Source: Parcubacteria group bacterium
GTDB lineage: Bacteria; Patescibacteriota; Minisyncoccia; Phycocordibacterales; CALRHW01
DNA length: 64,000 nt
NCBI GenBank assembly: GCA_943359555.1
Contig: CALRHW010000001.1
Location: 2,718 to 66,717, forward strand
Reading direction: 5' to 3'
The notes under the pieces were generated by a model. That model was not told the DNA's origin, ran no database searches, and saw only the letters and a program-made list of their open reading frames with translations. A program made the translations under genes and the position numbers. Each line of letters begins with the position of its first letter. The stretch's first letter is position 1. This document shows, in pieces, positions 1,295-62,770 of the stretch.

Positions 1295-1549
1295 TTATTG
1301 TCTCTCGAGTTTGAAATTTGCCAACGCTTCGTCAGAAAGCTTGCGATTAATTTCATCACTAATTGCGTAAGCAATGCGATGAACTTCAATCTTGGCTTTT
1401 ATAACTGTACGCTTTTTCAACAACTCCGGAGTCCAATCTTTTAGACCTCCGTAATTCTCAATTGACCGCCTTGCTTCTTCACAAAGATTTACCAGCTCTA
1501 GATTCAGCTGGTACAATCTAGCAAGATGATCTTCACTAGATTTACTCAT
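1295..1549 (-). CDS. hypothetical small helical protein (84 aa)
   Basis: ORF preceded by a strong SD (AAGGAGGTGAAA then ATG). No recognisable motifs. Confidence 0.55.
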   Translation of the reverse strand: MSKSSEDHLARLYQLNLELVNLCEEARRSIENYGGLKDWTPELLKKRTVIKAKIEVHRIAYAISDEINRKLSDEALANFKLERQ

Positions 1550-3703: not shown

Positions 3704-4942
3704 TTAATGTTTAGCTTTACCTGCTTCCTCAATACGCTGTGCCGCCAAAATATATGCCGCGTTTCGCATTGTTGTAGAATATTTTTCTTTTACTGCTAGC
3801 ATATCTTTCCACGCAGAAACCATCAAATCATCTAGTTTTTTGAGCACATCTTCTCTATTCCATTTTTCATTGTTCATATTTTGATACCATTCAAAATAAC
3901 TAGTCGCGACTCCGCCACTATTTGCAAGGATATCTGGAATAACGATGACTCCATTTTTTGCAAAAATTTCATCGGACTCAGGAGTCGTCGGACCGTTTGC
4001 CATTTCTACGATAATTTTTGCAGATATTTGTTCTGCATTTTCTGATGTCAGTACATTTTCAAGTGCAGACGGCACCAAAATATCCACCGAGAGTAAAAGC
4101 AACTCCGCATTTGTGATATTTTTTGTACCAACCAAACCAGAGAGAGTCCCAGTATTTTTTTTGTGAGCGATTGCGAGCGCGAGTTCAATTCCATTTTCAT
4201 TATAAACTCCACCTCTGCTATCAGAGAGAGCCACTACTTTTAAACCTTGTTTTATCATACTCTCTGCAAAATATGTAGCGACATTTCCAAAACCTTGGAT
4301 AGCAACTGTTGCAGAAGCTGAAATCATTCCTGCTTTTAGAGCTTCTCTCACTATCACTCCTCCACCAAAACCTGTGGCTTCTGTTCTTCCTTCACTTCCG
4401 CCATTTGAAATAGCTTTTCCTGTAAATGTTGCGGGTGCTTTTTTTCCTGTGATTTTTTCATACTCATCTAGCATGAAACCCATAATTTTTTCACCAGTGT
4501 TTACATCTGGTGCGGGCACGTCCATTTCAGGTCCAAGCACTGGATACATTTTTTTTATATATCCGCGGGAAATATTTTCAATTTCTTTTTCAGATAAAAT
4601 TTTTGGGTCTACAATCACGCCACCTTTTCCGCCTCCAAACGGCACGTTTACTACCGCACATTTAAAAGTCATCCAAAAACTAAGAGCGCGCACCTCATCT
4701 AAATTTACGTCTGGATGAAAACGTATTCCTCCTTTATATGCTCCGCGTGCGTTATTGTGCTGACTTCTAAAACCTTGAAAAATATGTTGACTTCCGTCAT
4801 CCATAGTTACTGGAATACTCACTTCTATATATCTATCGGGAGTTTTCATTCTCTCTAAAAAATCTTGGTCAAGCTCTGCGATTTTTCCTGCTTTTTCCAA
4901 TTGGTCTATCGCATTTTTAAATGGATTTGTTTGATTTTGCAT
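3704..4942 (-). CDS. gdhA: NAD(P)-glutamate dehydrogenase (Glu/Leu/Phe/Val dehydrogenase family)
   Basis: The FGGGKGG motif sits in VNVPFGGGKGGVIVDPK. Full-length GDH with the characteristic N-terminus MQNQTNPFKNAIDQL. Confidence 0.9.
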   Translation of the reverse strand: MQNQTNPFKNAIDQLEKAGKIAELDQDFLERMKTPDRYIEVSIPVTMDDGSQHIFQGFRSQHNNARGAYKGGIRFHPDVNLDEVRALSFWMTFKCAVVNVPFGGGKGGVIVDPKILSEKEIENISRGYIKKMYPVLGPEMDVPAPDVNTGEKIMGFMLDEYEKITGKKAPATFTGKAISNGGSEGRTEATGFGGGVIVREALKAGMISASATVAIQGFGNVATYFAESMIKQGLKVVALSDSRGGVYNENGIELALAIAHKKNTGTLSGLVGTKNITNAELLLLSVDILVPSALENVLTSENAEQISAKIIVEMANGPTTPESDEIFAKNGVIVIPDILANSGGVATSYFEWYQNMNNEKWNREDVLKKLDDLMVSAWKDMLAVKEKYSTTMRNAAYILAAQRIEEAGKAKH

Positions 4943-4962
4943 TTTGTAAGTATATGTTAAAA

Positions 4963-4987
4963 GCGGGGGTCTTGGTAGACCTCCCGC
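4963..4987 (-). terminator. intrinsic terminator/attenuator hairpin immediately upstream of the gdhA start
   Basis: The minus strand reads GCGGGAGGTC-TACCAA-GACCCCCGC followed by TTTT, then 16 nt to the gdhA ATG. Confidence 0.5.
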
Positions 4988-5383
4988 TATTCATTCAAAC
5001 AACCATCAAATAATTCTACGACGCCGTAGAAACTCCATGAAGGATGAGTGCCTCGGTCTCGAAGTCAGAACTCTTGGCTCAATCATTATAGCTCCATCAA
5101 TAATAGTGCGATGCTTGTTTGAGTAATGCTGTGGTCGCCAGTCTCGACGGGTATCGTCTTGATCTCCATTTCTTTCTCGTGAATTTTGTCTCGTGCCTGA
5201 CATTCGTTTAATCTCCATATTGAGTGCTAGGAACGCCTAGAATAAGGACACCTTATTCAGTAAACAGCTCCATACATAAGCCTACACCTAATAATAAAAA
5301 AATCAACACGTTATCAACGCAACTGTGGATTACTTGGCTCGCATCATTTATTATCTTTTTTCAAGTTTTATGTCCGCGGGAGC

Positions 5384-6637
5384 TTATATTTTTGGAATTA
5401 TTTTTTGATTTGTGATTGGTGTCGTAGTAGAAATTATTTTTTCAGCTTCAACCGCGTTAAATAATCCATTTTTGTAAAGTGTAAACGCTACTCCATATTC
5501 TTTTACTTGAAACTGTGTATCTCCAGAATCAACAAATTTTACCGCTTCATCAAGAGTACTTGAAGCAATGGCAATAGAAGTTGTGGAAACTTCTATGTTT
5601 TTATCTATGCTCTGTTTTACTTTGTCAATTTTAGTGACCGCATCTTTTCTTTTGTCCTGAGCTGTAGCTTTTTTCATTTCATTATCGTCAAGTGTTGGAA
5701 TTTTTGCCTCCACTTCTTCACGCACTTGTGCTGTTGTGTTTATGTTTGCTTCAACAGAATCAAGGAGATTGCTCAGTTCTGTCTGACTATCTAATTTATT
5801 GTCCAACACCTTTTCGTTTGCCGTTTTTTCATCTAAGGGCGTAACTGTTTCTTTTACTAACACTACTTCTTCAATAGCAACGTCTGGTTTTATAAAACTA
5901 TTTGTAGAATCATCTGTTACAGAAATAACCGCCACATCTTTTTGCTCTGTGTCACTTTGAACAGATGCGACAGTGGTTTCGTTTTTCGTGCTGGGGCTAG
6001 GTGTCGCAACTATGACCGTCTTCAAACTTGCAGTCTCCGCTTTTTGCGTTCTATCTACTTTTGCAAGAGAAGCACTGTGTTCTTTTAAAGACTCTTCTAG
6101 ATTTTTACTTACATCTATCGCCATTTTTAAATCATTATTTGCTTCTATTCTAGCGATTTGCTGTTGAACACTTTTTACATGTTTATTAAAATTTTCTTGA
6201 ATTATGTTTTTTGACGTGGTATCAAGCTCGCCCCTTACTGCAAGTTTTTTGGCTTCGTCTAGTCGCTCACCCGCACGTGCAGTATCAAAATATGCTTTTG
6301 ACTGCGCACTAAAAACAAACCAAAAACGCATGTCTTCCGTAGCGAGTTTTATAGAATAAAGAGCATTGTTTGGAAGAGCCGTCTGTGCGAGCAAAGTCGT
6401 TCCTCCGCCGAAAGCGATAACGACAACAAGAGCAAAAGCCACCGCGCGTTGCGAATGAATAAAATATGGAGAAAAAATGGAGAGAAATCTTTGCTGTTGG
6501 GATTTTTGTGGGTGAGATTTTTGCACAGGATTTTCTTTCACATAAAAATCCACATTTTTCCAAATGTTTTGTTTTTCTTCGGTTGAAAGAAGGATTCCTT
6601 TTGCGGATTTTATTATTTTTTTAAATTCGTTATTCAT
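5384..6637 (-). CDS. single-pass membrane protein, putative anti-sigma factor (DUF5667-like by context)
   Basis: Located 17 nt downstream of the ECF sigma gene. It has a cytoplasmic N-terminal ~60 aa, one TM (AVAFALVVVIAFGGGTTLL) and a long coiled-coil/Thr-Ser-rich extracytoplasmic part. Confidence 0.45.
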   Translation of the reverse strand: MNNEFKKIIKSAKGILLSTEEKQNIWKNVDFYVKENPVQKSHPQKSQQQRFLSIFSPYFIHSQRAVAFALVVVIAFGGGTTLLAQTALPNNALYSIKLATEDMRFWFVFSAQSKAYFDTARAGERLDEAKKLAVRGELDTTSKNIIQENFNKHVKSVQQQIARIEANNDLKMAIDVSKNLEESLKEHSASLAKVDRTQKAETASLKTVIVATPSPSTKNETTVASVQSDTEQKDVAVISVTDDSTNSFIKPDVAIEEVVLVKETVTPLDEKTANEKVLDNKLDSQTELSNLLDSVEANINTTAQVREEVEAKIPTLDDNEMKKATAQDKRKDAVTKIDKVKQSIDKNIEVSTTSIAIASSTLDEAVKFVDSGDTQFQVKEYGVAFTLYKNGLFNAVEAEKIISTTTPITNQKIIPKI

Positions 6638-7173: not shown

Positions 7174-7204
7174 AGTTATGACGTGAAAAAAGCCACGGCA
7201 TTAC

Positions 7205-7241
7205 AGGGTATTATACAACATATTCGTAAAAACTCGGCTAT
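7205..7241 (-). promoter_or_regulatory. candidate extended -10 promoter (TTGTATAAT on minus strand) upstream of the ECF sigma gene
   Basis: The reverse complement of 7210-7218 is TTGTATAAT, about 35 nt upstream of the sigma ATG. The -35 is poor. Confidence 0.25.
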
Positions 7242-45319: not shown

Positions 45320-48300
45320 TTATTCGTCTGAGTCTTCTTCTGCTTGCGACCTTTTTGGCACTTTTAGATCAATATCAAGTCCGATTCCACGAAGATTATT
45401 AAGAAGCACATTAAATGAAGCTGGCGTATTTGGCTCGCCGATTCTTTCACCTTTTACTATTGCATCAAATGCAGCTGAACGTCCGATAATATCATCAGAT
45501 TTTATTGTAAGCATTTCTCGTAAAGTATAAGCCGCGCCGTGACCGAGTAGAGCCCACACTTCCATTTCTCCAAATCTCTGTCCTCCACCTTGTGCCTTTC
45601 CTCCGAGCGGTTGCTGAGTAATGAGAGAGTAAGGTCCGATAGAACGCATGTGAATTTTGTCTTCTACCATGTGATGGAGTTTCATTATGTACATATAACC
45701 CACGGCGATTTCTTGGTTGAAAGCCACACCTGTGCGTCCGTCAAAGAGTTTCATTTTGCCGTTTTCACTAAAGCCTGCTTTTTTCAATTCTTCTTTTACT
45801 TCTTTACCAGTCGCGCCTGTAAATGGAGGAATAATAGCTTGGTAGTTGAGAGTATGCGCCGCAAGTCCTAGGTGCAATTCCAAAATCTGTCCGAGATTCA
45901 TACGTGATGGCACACCAAGCGGTGTCAAAATAATATCTATCGGAGTACCGTCTGCCATATACGGCATATCTTCTTCTGGAAGAATTCTTGAAATAACTCC
46001 CTTGTTTCCGTGTCGTCCAGCGAGCTTGTCACCGACTGATACTGTACGGAGTTGTGCGACTTCAATATGAATTCTTTTTATAATTCCGCTCTCTAGCTTG
46101 TCGCCTTTTTCACGAGAGAAAACTTGCACATTTATAATACGTCCACGCTTTCCTCCTTCCATTCTTTTTGATGTATCTTTTACATCGCGAGCTTTTTCAC
46201 CGAAAAGTGAACGAAGTAGTCGCTCTTCTGGAGTAAGTTGAGTTTCGCCTTTTGGAGTAATTTTTCCTACAAGAATATCACCAGAACGCACCTCTGCTCC
46301 TACGCGTATGATTCCGTCTTCTGCGAGATTTTTGAGTTTTCCTTCACCGACGTTTGGGATGTCGCATGTGGTCACTTCTGGTCCGAGTTTTGTATCACGC
46401 ACGTTTACGACAAACTCTTCAATATGAATTGAGCTAAATTTACTTTCTTTTACAAGTCTTTCTGACACGATAATCGCGTCTTCATAATTTGATCCAGACC
46501 ATGACATAAAGGCGACTAAAATATTTTGTCCAAGTGCCATTTGTCCGCGATCACTTGATGAATTGTCTACTATCACCTGCCCTTTTTTCACTTTATCGCC
46601 GACATTTACCGCTGGTCGCTGATAGAAAGCAGTGAAGCCGTTTGTTCGTGAAAAGTTTACGAGTTTGTATTCACGCACCTTTCCTTTTTCATTTTTGATA
46701 ATGATTTTTTTTGCGTCTGAATGGGTGACTGTTCCCGCTTCGCCTGCGATAAGGAGTCGTCCTGTGTCCATTACTGCTCGGTCTTCAATACCTGTTGCTA
46801 CGAGTGGTGCTTCAGGAACGATACAAGGAGTGGCTTGTTTTTGCATATTTGATCCCATGAGTGCGCGATTGGCATCGTCGTGGTTTAAAAATGGAATCAT
46901 TGAGGTTGCGACAGAAAAGGCCTGATTGGTTGCAACATCTATAAAATCCACCTGATCTTTTGGTACAAGTCCTGGTTTTCCTTTTATGCGCACTTCTACA
47001 TCTTCTTCTATTATTTTTCCGCTCTCGTCAGTCGTCGTTGCGGCGTGAGCGATTTTGTAAAGTTCTTCTTCAAGAGCATTCATATAAATAATCTCGTCAG
47101 TCACTTTTCCATTTTTTACTTTTGCGTAAGGAGTTTCAATCATTCCGAACTCATTTATACGAGCATAAAGCGCAAGACGTAAAATAAGACCGATGTTTGG
47201 ACCTTCAGGTGTGTGGATAGGACAAAGTCTGCCGTAATGAGACGTATGCACGTCGCGTACTTCAAAACCCGCGCGTGAACGATTGAGTCCTCCCGGCCCG
47301 AGAGCTGAAAGAGTTCGTAAATGTTCTAGTTCTTCTAGAGCATTTGTCTGTTGCATAAATTGTGAAAGTTGATTTGTTGTGAAAAATTCTTTGATGCGGG
47401 CTTGAAGCGGTTTTGGACTGATAAATTGAACAGGAAGTGTCACATCAGTATCTACTGTAGACATTCTGTTTTGAATATTTCGTTTTATTTGCGCCATACC
47501 CATTCGGATTTTTTGCTGAAAAAGCTCGCCTACATATCGCACACGACGTGAACCGAGATGATCAATGTCGTCTTCGTGCGCATCTTCTGTATTGTTTAAG
47601 GTTACGATATTTGAAACGATAGTTTTCATATCGTCCAAAGAAATAGTCTTTTGTGCGCGAGCTTTTTCATCAATAGGTTTTCCAAATCGCTGATTGAATC
47701 TAAAACGTCCCACTGGAGAAAGGTCGTATCGGTCTTTACTGAAAATAGAGAGGACAAATTCTTTTGCGTTTTCTACCGCAGCTAGATCGCCGTCACGAAG
47801 CTTTTTGTAGATCTCTACATAAGATTCGTCTAGAGTTTTTGCATGGTCTTTTGCAAGCGACTTTTCAAGGTAAGTTTTTGCAAATTCATTATCTTTACAA
47901 AGCGACAAAATATCCTTATCTGTAGTCGCGCCAAGGACACGAAGAAGAGATGTGATTGGGAATTTTCGTTTTTTATCCACGCGCACATAAAGCACGTTTT
48001 CCGCATCAGTTTCAATTTCAATCCAAGCACCACGCGATGGAATGATTTTTGCACCGAAAAGTATGCGTCCTTTTACCTCTTGAGATGTAAAGAAAACTCC
48101 GAAAGAACGTGCAAGCTGAGGCACGATAACACGTTCAATTCCAGAAACGATAAAAGTACCGTGAGCGGTCATAAGTGGAAAATCTGCTAGGAAAATTTCC
48201 TGCTCTTTTGCAGTTTTTAAAATATGATTTGTGAGTTTTACTTTTACTTTGAGCGGAGCTTCGTAAGACATCTTGTTGTCTTTTGCATAATATTCGTCGT

Positions 48301-48562
48301 ATTTTGGGGCGCTCAATTCAAAGCCAGTAAAATCTAGCTGAAACTTTTTTTCTGAATAATCTTTTATTGAAGAAAATTCATCAAAAATTTCTTTGAGTCC
48401 TTTTTCAATAAGCCAAGTAAATGAAGTCATTTGTGACTCCACAAGATTTGGCATTGGTGCAAGTGGCTTTTTAAAACGACCGAAAAACTTTTTCTCTCGG
48501 GGTGTATGTGCCCCGGTATTTATTTGTGGTGTCATATAAATGAAAAAATGGCGGAAAGCCAA
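45320..48562 (-). CDS. rpoB: DNA-directed RNA polymerase subunit beta
   Basis: Conserved beta-subunit segments throughout. A TTG start at 48562 is preceded by AGAGGTG; an alternative ATG lies at 48535. Confidence 0.95.
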   Translation of the reverse strand: MAFRHFFIYMTPQINTGAHTPREKKFFGRFKKPLAPMPNLVESQMTSFTWLIEKGLKEIFDEFSSIKDYSEKKFQLDFTGFELSAPKYDEYYAKDNKMSYEAPLKVKVKLTNHILKTAKEQEIFLADFPLMTAHGTFIVSGIERVIVPQLARSFGVFFTSQEVKGRILFGAKIIPSRGAWIEIETDAENVLYVRVDKKRKFPITSLLRVLGATTDKDILSLCKDNEFAKTYLEKSLAKDHAKTLDESYVEIYKKLRDGDLAAVENAKEFVLSIFSKDRYDLSPVGRFRFNQRFGKPIDEKARAQKTISLDDMKTIVSNIVTLNNTEDAHEDDIDHLGSRRVRYVGELFQQKIRMGMAQIKRNIQNRMSTVDTDVTLPVQFISPKPLQARIKEFFTTNQLSQFMQQTNALEELEHLRTLSALGPGGLNRSRAGFEVRDVHTSHYGRLCPIHTPEGPNIGLILRLALYARINEFGMIETPYAKVKNGKVTDEIIYMNALEEELYKIAHAATTTDESGKIIEEDVEVRIKGKPGLVPKDQVDFIDVATNQAFSVATSMIPFLNHDDANRALMGSNMQKQATPCIVPEAPLVATGIEDRAVMDTGRLLIAGEAGTVTHSDAKKIIIKNEKGKVREYKLVNFSRTNGFTAFYQRPAVNVGDKVKKGQVIVDNSSSDRGQMALGQNILVAFMSWSGSNYEDAIIVSERLVKESKFSSIHIEEFVVNVRDTKLGPEVTTCDIPNVGEGKLKNLAEDGIIRVGAEVRSGDILVGKITPKGETQLTPEERLLRSLFGEKARDVKDTSKRMEGGKRGRIINVQVFSREKGDKLESGIIKRIHIEVAQLRTVSVGDKLAGRHGNKGVISRILPEEDMPYMADGTPIDIILTPLGVPSRMNLGQILELHLGLAAHTLNYQAIIPPFTGATGKEVKEELKKAGFSENGKMKLFDGRTGVAFNQEIAVGYMYIMKLHHMVEDKIHMRSIGPYSLITQQPLGGKAQGGGQRFGEMEVWALLGHGAAYTLREMLTIKSDDIIGRSAAFDAIVKGERIGEPNTPASFNVLLNNLRGIGLDIDLKVPKRSQAEEDSDE

Positions 48563-48735
48563 AAACCACCTCTTGTAAAGGTGTCTTTATAATTGGGTTA
48601 CTAATTTATCTATTGTATGTAGGCAAGGTGTGCGAAATACAACTACTAAACTTTGCACCTACGGTCGTAACTCAATCTATGCAATTAGGAATAGTATAGA
48701 TGTGGGGTAGTTTTTTGTCAACAACATCTAGACAG

Positions 48736-48828
48736 AAAAAGAGCCTTTGAACTGTGCACATAAATTTCTGCTGAAATTTTGTTATGCTCGCGCCAAGCGC
48801 TCCGCAACACAGTTCAAAGGCTCTTTTT
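48736..48828. terminator. 21-bp perfect inverted repeat enclosing a 51-nt GC-containing loop between trmD and rpoB; T-runs on both strands
   Basis: AAAAAGAGCCTTTGAACTGTG ... CACAGTTCAAAGGCTCTTTTT, with the inner hairpin GCGCCAAGCGC. Confidence 0.6.
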
Positions 48829-48943
48829 CTTTCTATCTTGCTGTCGTCAGCAAAAAACACCAATTGCCCCCGCCTGCGCGAGTTATTTCTCAATATGTTT
48901 TTATTGGGCCATTTACTTCCTTTTTTATAAACCTATCTTATCA

Positions 48944-49630
48944 TTATTTTTTCCTCCCCTTTCTCCATTCCTCTATTTTTGCGTGATTGCCTGAAAGGAG
49001 AATTTTTGGGACGTGATATTTTTTGTTTTTGAAAGTAAAAACTTCTGGGCGGGTGTAAACGTCTGGGCTTGCAATGCGGGATTCTTCAAGCGACTGAGCA
49101 GAGCCGAGAACGCCTTTTACTTGTCGCGCGATGCAGTCTATCAAAATCATCGCGGGCAATTCCCCACCCGTAAGCACAAATGGTCCGACAGACACATCTT
49201 CCATTTTAAAAATCTTTTTGATGCGCGCATCTATGCCTTCATAGCGACCAGAGACGATGATGATGTTTTTATATTTTTTCGCGGATGATTTTGCGTAATC
49301 ATTTGTGAATTGTTTTCCGCTCGGCGACAAGAAAATGATTTTCGTGGATTTTGTAGGATTTTTTGCGCCCGCGCCATCACTAGCCCTACCCGTAGAGCTT
49401 TTTGAAATTGCTTTCGCTATCGCTTTCACCACAGGTAATGCTTGAATAACCATTCCCGGACCTCCGCCGTATGGTTTTTGATCTATGCGTCGCCATTTGT
49501 CTTCACTAAAGTCGCGCGGGTTGTAAAATTTGATGCGGATTTTTTTGTCTTCAATCGCGCGCTTAATAATAGACTCGCCTAGATACGAGCTGAAAGCGTC
49601 CTCAAATAATGTGATGATGTGAAATGTCAT
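48944..49630 (-). CDS. trmD: tRNA (guanine37-N1)-methyltransferase
   Basis: MTFHIITLFEDAF N-terminus. SPOUT knot motifs GGGPGMV and GRYEGIDARI. Confidence 0.9.
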   Translation of the reverse strand: MTFHIITLFEDAFSSYLGESIIKRAIEDKKIRIKFYNPRDFSEDKWRRIDQKPYGGGPGMVIQALPVVKAIAKAISKSSTGRASDGAGAKNPTKSTKIIFLSPSGKQFTNDYAKSSAKKYKNIIIVSGRYEGIDARIKKIFKMEDVSVGPFVLTGGELPAMILIDCIARQVKGVLGSAQSLEESRIASPDVYTRPEVFTFKNKKYHVPKILLSGNHAKIEEWRKGRKK

Positions 49631-57559: not shown

Positions 57560-57781
57560 TTACTTTTTCCCCGCTTTCTCTTTAGCTTTTTGCCGTTTAG
57601 TGATTTTAGCCATCGTATCCACTACTACTTTGTCTTTATAAGTACCACATTTTGCACATACTCTATGACTCATTTTTGGAGCGTTGCATTTTGGACACTT
57701 GGAAAGAGACCTCATCTTTAGTGCGTGATGAGAACGTCTGTTGCCCGTATGAGCCCGTGTGTGTCGCATTCTTACAACCAT
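57560..57781 (-). CDS. rpmF: 50S ribosomal protein L32
   Basis: N-terminus MVVRMRHTRAHTGNRRSHHALK, and Zn ribbon CPKC...CAKCG. Confidence 0.8.
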   Translation of the reverse strand: MVVRMRHTRAHTGNRRSHHALKMRSLSKCPKCNAPKMSHRVCAKCGTYKDKVVVDTMAKITKRQKAKEKAGKK

Positions 57782-61761: not shown

Positions 61762-62601
61762 TTACAGCTTTTCAACCTGCTGTGGAGATAAATCTGTAGG
61801 AAATACTACTTTTTTTTTGGGTTGTGGTGGTGTTGGTGTTGGTGCAATCAGTGGTGCGCTTGTTGGTGGTATCATTTCTTTAGGAATATAACCTGGTTTT
61901 TGCGGACGAGTCATTTCTGGAGAAATATTGAAAGGGAATTTAAATGGCCCTAGCTTTGGCTTTGTGTCGGGAGGTATTGGCTTCATTATGGGGAAATATG
62001 GTGCTAGGTAAGCCGGCATAGGTTTTGAATCACAATAAGTCACTAGCATTCCTCCCATACCGTCACTTTCAAGACAGATATCTCTTGCACCACTCCACTC
62101 GCTACTTGTGCAAGAATATTTTAAAACTGGTCCACTAATAAGAGTGCATTGCAAATATCTAGAAGAACTCCACCAATTACTACCTGATATTCGCAGAACG
62201 TATGGATTTGGATTATTAGGAAGATTACTTGGTTTACGACTAATTACAATTTTAATACAAGCAACAATAGGAATTCCTAATATTGATTCACCTGTTGGAA
62301 AACAGAGCTCCACATTTAATGTTTGACCACTCTCAAGTGTCTTAAAACAGGCAGTCGCACCATTAGGTAATGGGTACTCAACCCCTGGTAAACAGGGTGT
62401 AATTGGTACTTCTGGCGATAGTGTCGGTGCGCTTGTTGGCGGTACTGCTGATTTAAAAATACCCGTCAACAAAGAAGCCATCTGTTGATTTTCAAAAGAA
62501 GAACTGGGTGTCATAGATATTATTTTGTATGTTTGTATACAAGATAATACAAATATTCCAGCGAGCAATGCAAAACCTATCAATACATGTTTCTTCTCCA
62601 T
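61762..62601 (-). CDS. secreted/anchored Cys- and Pro-rich protein of unknown function
   Basis: N-terminal TM/signal VLIGFALLAGIFVL. About 10 Cys in the mature part and a Pro-rich C-terminus. Confidence 0.5.
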   Translation of the reverse strand: MEKKHVLIGFALLAGIFVLSCIQTYKIISMTPSSSFENQQMASLLTGIFKSAVPPTSAPTLSPEVPITPCLPGVEYPLPNGATACFKTLESGQTLNVELCFPTGESILGIPIVACIKIVISRKPSNLPNNPNPYVLRISGSNWWSSSRYLQCTLISGPVLKYSCTSSEWSGARDICLESDGMGGMLVTYCDSKPMPAYLAPYFPIMKPIPPDTKPKLGPFKFPFNISPEMTRPQKPGYIPKEMIPPTSAPLIAPTPTPPQPKKKVVFPTDLSPQQVEKL

Positions 62602-62770
62602 TTTAGATAAAAGTCAAATTTTATTAATAATTTAAAACTACTATCAATTCTACCCCCCCTTTTCATAAAAAACAAAGTGTTTGATTCATATAAGTGGGGA
62701 TAAACCTTCTATCTAGGTTTCAAGATGGATTTAACCTTGAAATAAGCCTAAAAATTGCTATTATCTATAC

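Follow-up and report, generated by a model that had tools for sequence, protein, structure and literature searches.

What occupies the long gap in front of gdhA in the genome of an uncultivated member of the Patescibacteria, and does it regulate that gene? In a stretch of 64,000 nucleotides (nt) from a Parcubacteria group bacterium (assembly GCA_943359555.1, contig CALRHW010000001.1, positions 2,718 to 66,717; the whole stretch is called the window below), the minus strand carries, in this order, a gene for an extracytoplasmic function (ECF)-type sigma factor (7173-6655), a gene for a DUF5667 protein (6637-5384), a gap (5383-4943) and gdhA (4942-3704). The gap, which extends from the stop of the DUF5667 open reading frame (ORF, 5384-6637) to the gdhA ATG (4942-4940), is a spacer of 441 nt on the minus strand (4943-5383). 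It is the longest of the 51 gaps between 52 crude gene calls, the next ones measuring 408 and 375 nt, and its GC content is 0.44-0.46, compared with 0.32-0.40 in the surroundings. A first-pass annotation of the same DNA had pointed to the unusual length of the spacer, to several hairpins and to an intrinsic terminator 16 nt before the gdhA start, and had read the arrangement as an attenuation leader or riboswitch of gdhA. The length is borne out by the comparison of gaps, the hairpins are all present on the minus strand, and the terminator is genuine, with exactly 16 nt between the end of its T-run and the gdhA ATG. The regulatory reading fared differently, as described below.

The spacer is functional, with a real, conserved RNA structure and a genuine intrinsic terminator at its end. 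It very probably constitutes a self-contained transcription unit rather than an attenuator of gdhA, and we consider it reasonably likely, from the signals that it contains, that this unit is a lineage-restricted, unannotated small-protein gene with a cis-acting structure in its 5' untranslated region (5' UTR). In the model that we propose, a housekeeping-type promoter would start a transcript of ~310 nt, the first ~45 nt of which would fold into a two-helix element in which an outer helix, P1, encloses an inner one, P2. Some 20-35 nt further on, a GGAG sequence and an ATG (5203) would open a short frame for a very basic, hydrophilic protein of 65 amino acids (aa) here and of 36-64 aa in most relatives. 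A second hairpin, H3, and the strong intrinsic terminator would then end the transcript, and the terminator would insulate gdhA, which would be transcribed without a leader from a -10 box 6 nt before its ATG. We infer the start sites, the production of the peptide and the role of P1/P2; the transcription start of the small unit is predicted near 5272.

Folded as a whole, the 441 nt are not better than shuffled sequences (z = -1.28), so that single-sequence folding on its own provides no justification for the finding. The decisive support is comparative, because compensatory changes in relatives preserve the first hairpin and the terminator. The comparison covered the loci L086 to L094, L175 and L176, comprising ten distinct syntenic relatives with GdhA proteins 73-87% identical. 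All ten keep the order sigma factor, DUF5667, unit, gdhA, PGI, ROK; the gap between the sigma/DUF5667 genes and gdhA ranges from 318 to 658 nt, and the promoter, P1/P2, GGAG-ATG, ORF, H3 and terminator are collinear throughout. The z score of the whole region, the narrow distribution of the unit and the fast evolution of the ORF body would all suit a decaying remnant or neutral spacer with fortuitous hairpins, in which the terminator merely ends the sigma/DUF5667 operon. We regard this explanation as barely credible, since the six parts are kept in order down to a GdhA identity of 73% and the helices are maintained by compensatory changes.

The sigma70-like promoter is conserved as TTGnnT-16/17-TAnnnT, at the same distance from P1, in 10/10 distinct relatives. 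P1, with the consensus GGARC...GYTYC, starts ~7 nt after the -10 box and encloses a P2 of 8-9 bp, the top of which reads GGA-NYGU-UCC across the relatives. The strands that join the two helices are conserved in sequence, as UGUGUUUGA and UGUC across the relatives; in the window they read TGTTTACT and TAGGC. A further hairpin of the first-pass annotation, CTAGG-CGTT-CCTAG at 5240-5227 on the minus strand, is found in this species only; it is not conserved and competes with the conserved outer helix P1. In a model-based alignment (A8), all eight P2 pairs change on both sides, paired cells amount to 94%, compared with 39-51% in slid controls, and the covariation score of the 5' structure was reached by none of 500 shuffles. 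Variation of P1 in the same alignment runs through G-U intermediates only. L092 is misaligned at P1 and by eye has GGAGC/GCUUC there, with a G-C pair replacing the A-U pair of the others. P1 and P2 together form the minimum-energy fold in each of eight single sequences, with z scores between -1.4 and -5.3; the 45-nt 5' element of the window has a z score of -4.16, with none of 200 shuffles as good. The P1/P2 RNA structure is real, and it has no match in Rfam.

Our preferred guess is that P1/P2 would act in cis on the small mRNA itself, either as a 5'-terminal stabiliser or as an operator for the basic product or another factor, setting translation from one of the rare starts that are led by a Shine-Dalgarno (SD) sequence. 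The ompA and aprE leaders are 5'-terminal stabiliser stem-loops of bacterial mRNAs, and, as in these, a helix of the unit starts only a few nt from the predicted 5' end. Unlike in these, the joining strands and the top of P2 are conserved in sequence, which would fit a specifically recognised element better than a generic hairpin. The conservation of the single-stranded joints and the loop likewise suggests a specific binder, possibly the basic product itself.

The evidence for a protein product comes mainly from substitution patterns. The first-pass annotation had noticed a 70-codon, Arg-rich frame but set it aside for its lack of an SD sequence and its odd composition. The frame exists, and it can indeed be opened at an in-frame ATG at 5218 (5218-5006, 70 codons), but from the second ATG, at 5203, it has GGAG 9 nt upstream. 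GGAG, GGGAG, AGGAG or GAGGA occurs 4-12 nt before the ATG of the small ORF in 8/9 lineages. With 65 codons in the window, 36-65 across relatives and 131 in L088 and L089, the ORF is open from the equivalent ATG throughout: among 408 codons from eight sequences there are no stops in its frame, versus 14 and 19 in the other two. Coding-type substitution is seen in L087, L090, L093, L175 and L176 (the core group), where the first ~26 codons align without gaps. In this group, synonymous changes account for 29% of the differing codons in the ORF frame versus 9-10% in the other frames, and the amino-acid identity of 48% in the ORF frame drops to 27-28% outside it. Conservation is lowest at third codon positions, and switches between the Ser codons AGC and TCA and between the Arg codons AGG and CGC are present. 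The core peptides find one another by tblastn with E-values of 2e-6 to 2e-3 (2e-6 for L087-L175 and 3e-5 for L093-L175). The products of 36-65 aa all have isoelectric points (pI) of 10.6-12 and are strongly hydrophilic; the 131-aa product of L088 has a pI of 9.8. By these sequence criteria the small frame is probably translated, and the protein is probably disordered. Far from being negligible, the frame is probably the point of the locus: no relative has lost it, and in the best-conserved group its substitutions are of the coding type.

A number of observations weigh against a protein-coding function. The peptides of the window, L086 and L092 are tied to those of the core group by position and short motifs only, namely an N-terminal M-[SA]-[RG]-[ST]-x-[RQK]-N-x-R and [WL]-[KR]-P-x-H-[HY], and tblastn of these three gave nothing significant. 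Between the window and L086, whose GdhA proteins are 87% identical, the 5' UTR and the terminator are ~88-90% identical, whereas no alignment is possible through the ORF body, where the lengths of the indels are not divisible by three; strong conservation is thus confined to RNA and DNA signals and does not extend to the protein. At third codon positions, the GC content (GC3) of the core-group ORFs is 0.67-0.79, compared with 0.22-0.37 for gdhA. It is likewise 0.75 in the 131-aa ORF of L088 (2460-2855), the loci having ~35-42% GC overall. In L088 (2356-2855) and L089 (1458-1957) the same promoter and P1/P2 precede this 131-aa ORF, which belongs to no family and does not visibly resemble the small basic peptides. 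The small ORF was never called by gene callers. A search of the small peptide against 1.84 billion protein representatives returned no homologue and one low-complexity match, and a profile (A7) found no homologue among 5.8 billion protein clusters. The small peptide also had no match in Pfam, NCBIfam or the PDB. Resemblances to Escherichia coli Sra (GDKSS.V) and to bL32 (RR.H..L) were followed up and rejected, hhalign probabilities being below 1% in both cases; the bL32 comparison included the window's own bL32.

Many of these points would be expected if the unit were a non-coding or dual-function RNA of ~310 nt, in which P1/P2 would be the functional domain, for example by binding a protein or by base pairing, and the body a rapidly evolving spacer with a frame of incidental or secondary significance. 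Conservation is far higher in the 5' domain, promoter and terminator than in the ORF body, the unit is a GC-rich island in AT-rich genomes, its 5' element can precede a different ORF, and GGA or GGAAC recurs in the H3 loops and in P1. We give this explanation a real but minor chance. Despite the turnover of its sequence, the frame has stayed open in all lineages, and the frame-specific synonymous substitution in the core group, the GGAG at SD distance and the uniformly basic, hydrophilic character of the shorter products speak against it; moreover, the alignment fold has no conserved helices inside the ORF, and no second copy or target of the unit is evident in the window. SgrS/SgrT, RNAIII/hld and SR1/SR1P are small RNAs that also encode a small protein. 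The unit resembles them in that a transcript of ~300 nt, started and ended by its own signals (promoter and terminator), combines a conserved structured domain with a short ORF, but differs in that its conserved structure lies 5' of the ORF and that coding constraint is found only in part of the family. The small-protein gene with a 5'-UTR structure is hence the reading that we retain, and its parts are listed in Table 1 together with the features of the neighbouring genes that are discussed below.

Table 1. Positions of the features of the small unit, of the gdhA start and of the gene inserted in L094 (window coordinates unless a locus is given)
Feature	Position	Strand	Description
Sigma70-like promoter	5279..5306	(-)	-35 TTGATT 5306-5301, 16-nt spacer, -10 TAGGCT 5284-5279
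5'-UTR structure	5230..5271	(-)	P1, GGAGC 5271-5267 with GTTCC 5234-5230, enclosing P2
P2	5258-5240	(-)	GAATAAGG 5258-5251 paired with CCTTATTC 5247-5240, loop TGT
SD-like GGAG	5213..5216	(-)	9 nt before ATG at 5203
Small ORF	5006..5203	(-)	65 codons + stop, MSGTRQNSRERNGDQDDTRRDWRPQHYSNKHRTIIDGAIMIEPRVLTSRPRHSSFMEFLRRRRII
Hairpin H3	5015..5030	(-)	TCTACG-GCGT-CGTAGA, between ORF body and terminator; overlaps the last codons in the window
Intrinsic terminator	4959..4987	(-)	GCGGGAGGTC / TACCAA / GACCCCCGC (4987-4963), then TTTT 4962-4959
gdhA promoter -10 and ATG	4940..4954	(-)	TATACT 4954-4949, 6 nt 4948-4943, ATG 4942-4940
DUF4383 gene	L094:2440-2832	(-), opposite strand to unit	Between unit and gdhA, with bidirectional terminator AAAACCCCCCAAATGGGGGGTTTT

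At the 3' end of the unit, what is preserved of H3 and of the terminator is the structure and not the sequence. All relatives have a hairpin equivalent to H3, with differing sequences such as CTGGTCG-TGGGGAA-CGACTAG, CTGATTG-AGGAGAA-CAATCAG, TCCGAG-TTTAA-CTCGGA and GGTGAGTC-TCT-GACTCACC; H3 was also detected by the terminator scan. The terminator hairpin of the window has a GC-rich stem of 9-10 bp and a free energy of -18 kcal/mol, and those of the relatives, at the same place, reach -21 to -31 kcal/mol with U-rich tails, longer stems and compensatory changes. The U-tract is short, with four residues in the window and three in L086, and a simple scan missed the terminator at 4987-4959 because it has only 4 T's. 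A GC-rich stem-loop directly followed by a U-tract, at a conserved position, nevertheless has the make-up of an intrinsic terminator.

A strong terminator immediately upstream of gdhA speaks for a transcription-attenuation leader, in which translation of the Arg/His-rich frame, or binding of a ligand to the 5' structure, would decide whether the terminator forms. Consecutive Arg or His codons, giving RRRR in the window and HHHH in L087 and L090, end 18-60 nt before the terminator and point in the same direction, as does the adjacency of unit and gdhA in 9/10 relatives. However, a search of the upstream 140 nt for segments that could pair with the 5' arm of the terminator, made in four sequences, revealed no conserved competing pairing: the best competing duplexes (-9 to -17 kcal/mol) are interrupted, lie at non-equivalent positions and are weaker than the terminators (-18 to -31 kcal/mol). 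The alignment fold contains no terminator/antiterminator alternative, and between the 5' joint and the 5' end of gdhA a comparison by eye found a match of only ~5 nt. The conservation of the amino-acid sequence, not just of codon runs, is a further point against attenuation.

The position of the unit relative to gdhA is also at odds with a leader. In L094 the unit still lies beside the DUF5667 gene, and an opposite-strand DUF4383 gene with a second, bidirectional terminator separates it from gdhA. Conversely, where GdhA is at most 71% identical, the region upstream of gdhA has no nucleotide similarity and no unit, and usually a different gene abuts gdhA.

No riboswitch family supports the proposal either. 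The Rfam scan of the spacer that the first-pass annotation had suggested gives no credible match: for 4500-5900, searched with Rfam 15 at E <= 10, the best matches are eukaryotic long non-coding RNA and small nucleolar RNA noise far below the gathering scores. At gathering thresholds the whole window has a single match, a tRNA, and the search of eight related loci found nothing within the unit. The leads to the signal recognition particle RNA, tmRNA and RNase P that had been mentioned are not supported by Rfam 15 or by ARAGORN, which detects no tmRNA.

The promoter of gdhA provides the remaining argument. TATAAT or TATACT stands exactly 6 nt before the gdhA ATG in eight sequences (the window, L086, L087, L088, L090, L093, L175 and L176), with no SD sequence; in L094 the distance from the -10 box to the ATG downstream is ~26 nt instead. 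gdhA thus appears, from the conserved position of this box, to be transcribed from its own promoter as a leaderless mRNA. Since gdhA has its own -10 box and no SD sequence, an RNA reading through from the small unit would carry the gdhA ATG at an internal position, with no evident signal for ribosome binding. Taken with the absence of an antiterminator, of a riboswitch match and of a stable linkage to gdhA, this makes attenuation very unlikely. The unit shares with the trp, his and thr leader-peptide attenuators and the glutamine/glnA riboswitch leaders a codon-biased short ORF, hairpins and a terminator upstream of a gene of amino-acid metabolism. In contrast to them, it has neither a terminator/antiterminator switch nor an Rfam match, the downstream gene has its own leaderless promoter, and linkage of the unit to gdhA is limited to a narrow clade and is broken in L094. 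Classical leader peptides are also shorter than the 36-65 codons, with conserved residues, of the small ORF.

The signals at gdhA are not exceptional in this genome. Hexamers resembling a -10 box lie 5-8 nt before the start of ~10/52 window genes, and among the 52 window genes of at least 100 aa none has an SD-like 4-mer 4-14 nt upstream of its start, which suggests widespread leaderless or SD-independent initiation in the organism. We found no literature on the use of SD sequences or leaderless mRNAs in Patescibacteria. An ORF of 84 aa at 1295-1549 (minus strand), which belongs to no Pfam family, has a perfect AAAGGAGGTG 4 nt before its ATG, and the same SD sequence is conserved at the counterparts in the relatives (L087:6098, L090:6418, L093:5793, L175:6026 and L092:6387; 86-99 aa). 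To judge from these start regions, SD-like sequences are rare in the genome, yet the GGAG of the small unit is not unique.

Among documented systems, the closest logic is that of rpsU in Flavobacterium johnsoniae, although we regard this as an analogy and not as membership. In this SD-blind bacterium, rpsU, which encodes the small basic protein bS21, is the one gene with a strong SD sequence, and it is autoregulated (PMC9976891, PMC13000453). The small unit is similar in that a gene for a very basic small protein combines an SD-like GGAG with a 5'-UTR structure in an SD-poor genome prone to leaderless transcripts. It differs in that its product has no similarity to bS21, bL32, Sra, Pfam, NCBIfam or PDB entries, and in that, with the 84-aa ORF, it is not the sole SD-led gene of its genome. 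We speculate, and consider it rather unlikely, that the unit could encode a new ribosome- or nucleic-acid-associated small basic protein of Patescibacteria that limits its own synthesis via P1/P2 and the rare SD-led start, paralleling rpsU/bS21 with an unrelated protein and a new RNA motif.

As far as the sampled genomes indicate, the unit is restricted to a narrow clade of uncultivated Patescibacteria. The first-pass annotation had named conservation of the leader in relatives as a check; conservation holds in the ten syntenic relatives but ends where GdhA identity falls to 71% or less. An identical GdhA protein occurs on contigs of the metagenome-assembled genome GCA_943354415.1 and of several metagenome assemblies, and, among named organisms, the closest relatives are Patescibacteria that carry the annotation Paceibacterota, Saccharibacteria or Doudnabacteria. 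When the spacer was compared by blastn and nhmmer with the gdhA loci of 80 GTDB representatives, only same-species copies were returned. A covariance model (R1) that includes the promoter and the 5' structure matches the window at 5224-5306 with 84 bits, and applied to 126 loci and the window it found no members outside the syntenic clade. A weak match of R1 at 62537-62617 (minus strand; 15.9 bits, E = 5.7) was judged to be due to chance; it overlaps the start of a gene at 61762-62601 and is probably due to the promoter-like half of the model alone. In viral contigs, a 15-mer from the 5' part gave more than 120 chance matches, none with the downstream half of the element, and an 18-mer from H3 gave no match.

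New here are a probable small gene that is absent from gene calls and family databases and a covarying 5'-UTR motif that is absent from Rfam. Patescibacteria, or candidate phyla radiation (CPR) bacteria, have small genomes that are mostly known from metagenomes, and the contents of their few long gaps are rarely examined. The locus also illustrates how expression signals appear to be arranged in this organism, with many genes that have a -10 box abutting the ATG and no SD sequence, and a few small genes with SD-like sequences. If the peptide is ribosome-associated or autoregulatory, it would be an added component of the reduced translation apparatus of the group; if the unit works as a regulatory RNA, it would join the very small number of such candidates reported from CPR bacteria. 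A terminator just before a gene should not be equated with attenuation where leaderless promoters are common.

The sigma factor gene of the locus has a promoter of its own. The motif TGTAAT-N16-CGTC (window 7180-7205, minus strand) ends ~8 nt before the sigma ATG, is conserved upstream of the sigma genes in L086 to L094, L175 and L176, and occurs once in the 64-kb window, at the sigma gene. Judged by this position, the promoter has a putative leaderless, autoregulatory layout. Just upstream of this ECF-type promoter, and overlapping it, we noticed the sigma70-like sequences TGTATAAT or TGTATTAT. In the small unit the ECF motif is not conserved; a loose pattern, mostly noise, matches the sigma site only in L087, L088, L090, L091, L093, L094 and L176. 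The GGAAC...CGTTC blocks of the unit were considered as an ECF promoter and rejected, as they lie ~31 nt apart and the real ECF motif sits at the sigma gene. The pairing of GGAAC with CGTTC is kept as the spacing changes in L088 and L092, which fits RNA structure better than a promoter.

The two next longest gaps of the window differ in content. The 408-nt gap (48536-48943), between genes for a tRNA (m1G) methyltransferase (48944-49630) and an RNA polymerase beta-subunit (45320-48535, identified by eye from the translation), contains short, unconvincing ORFs only and has no Rfam match at the gathering threshold. The 375-nt gap is only apparent: it is occupied by an uncalled bL32 gene, a 73-aa ORF at 57560-57781 on the minus strand (PF01783, E = 7e-16).

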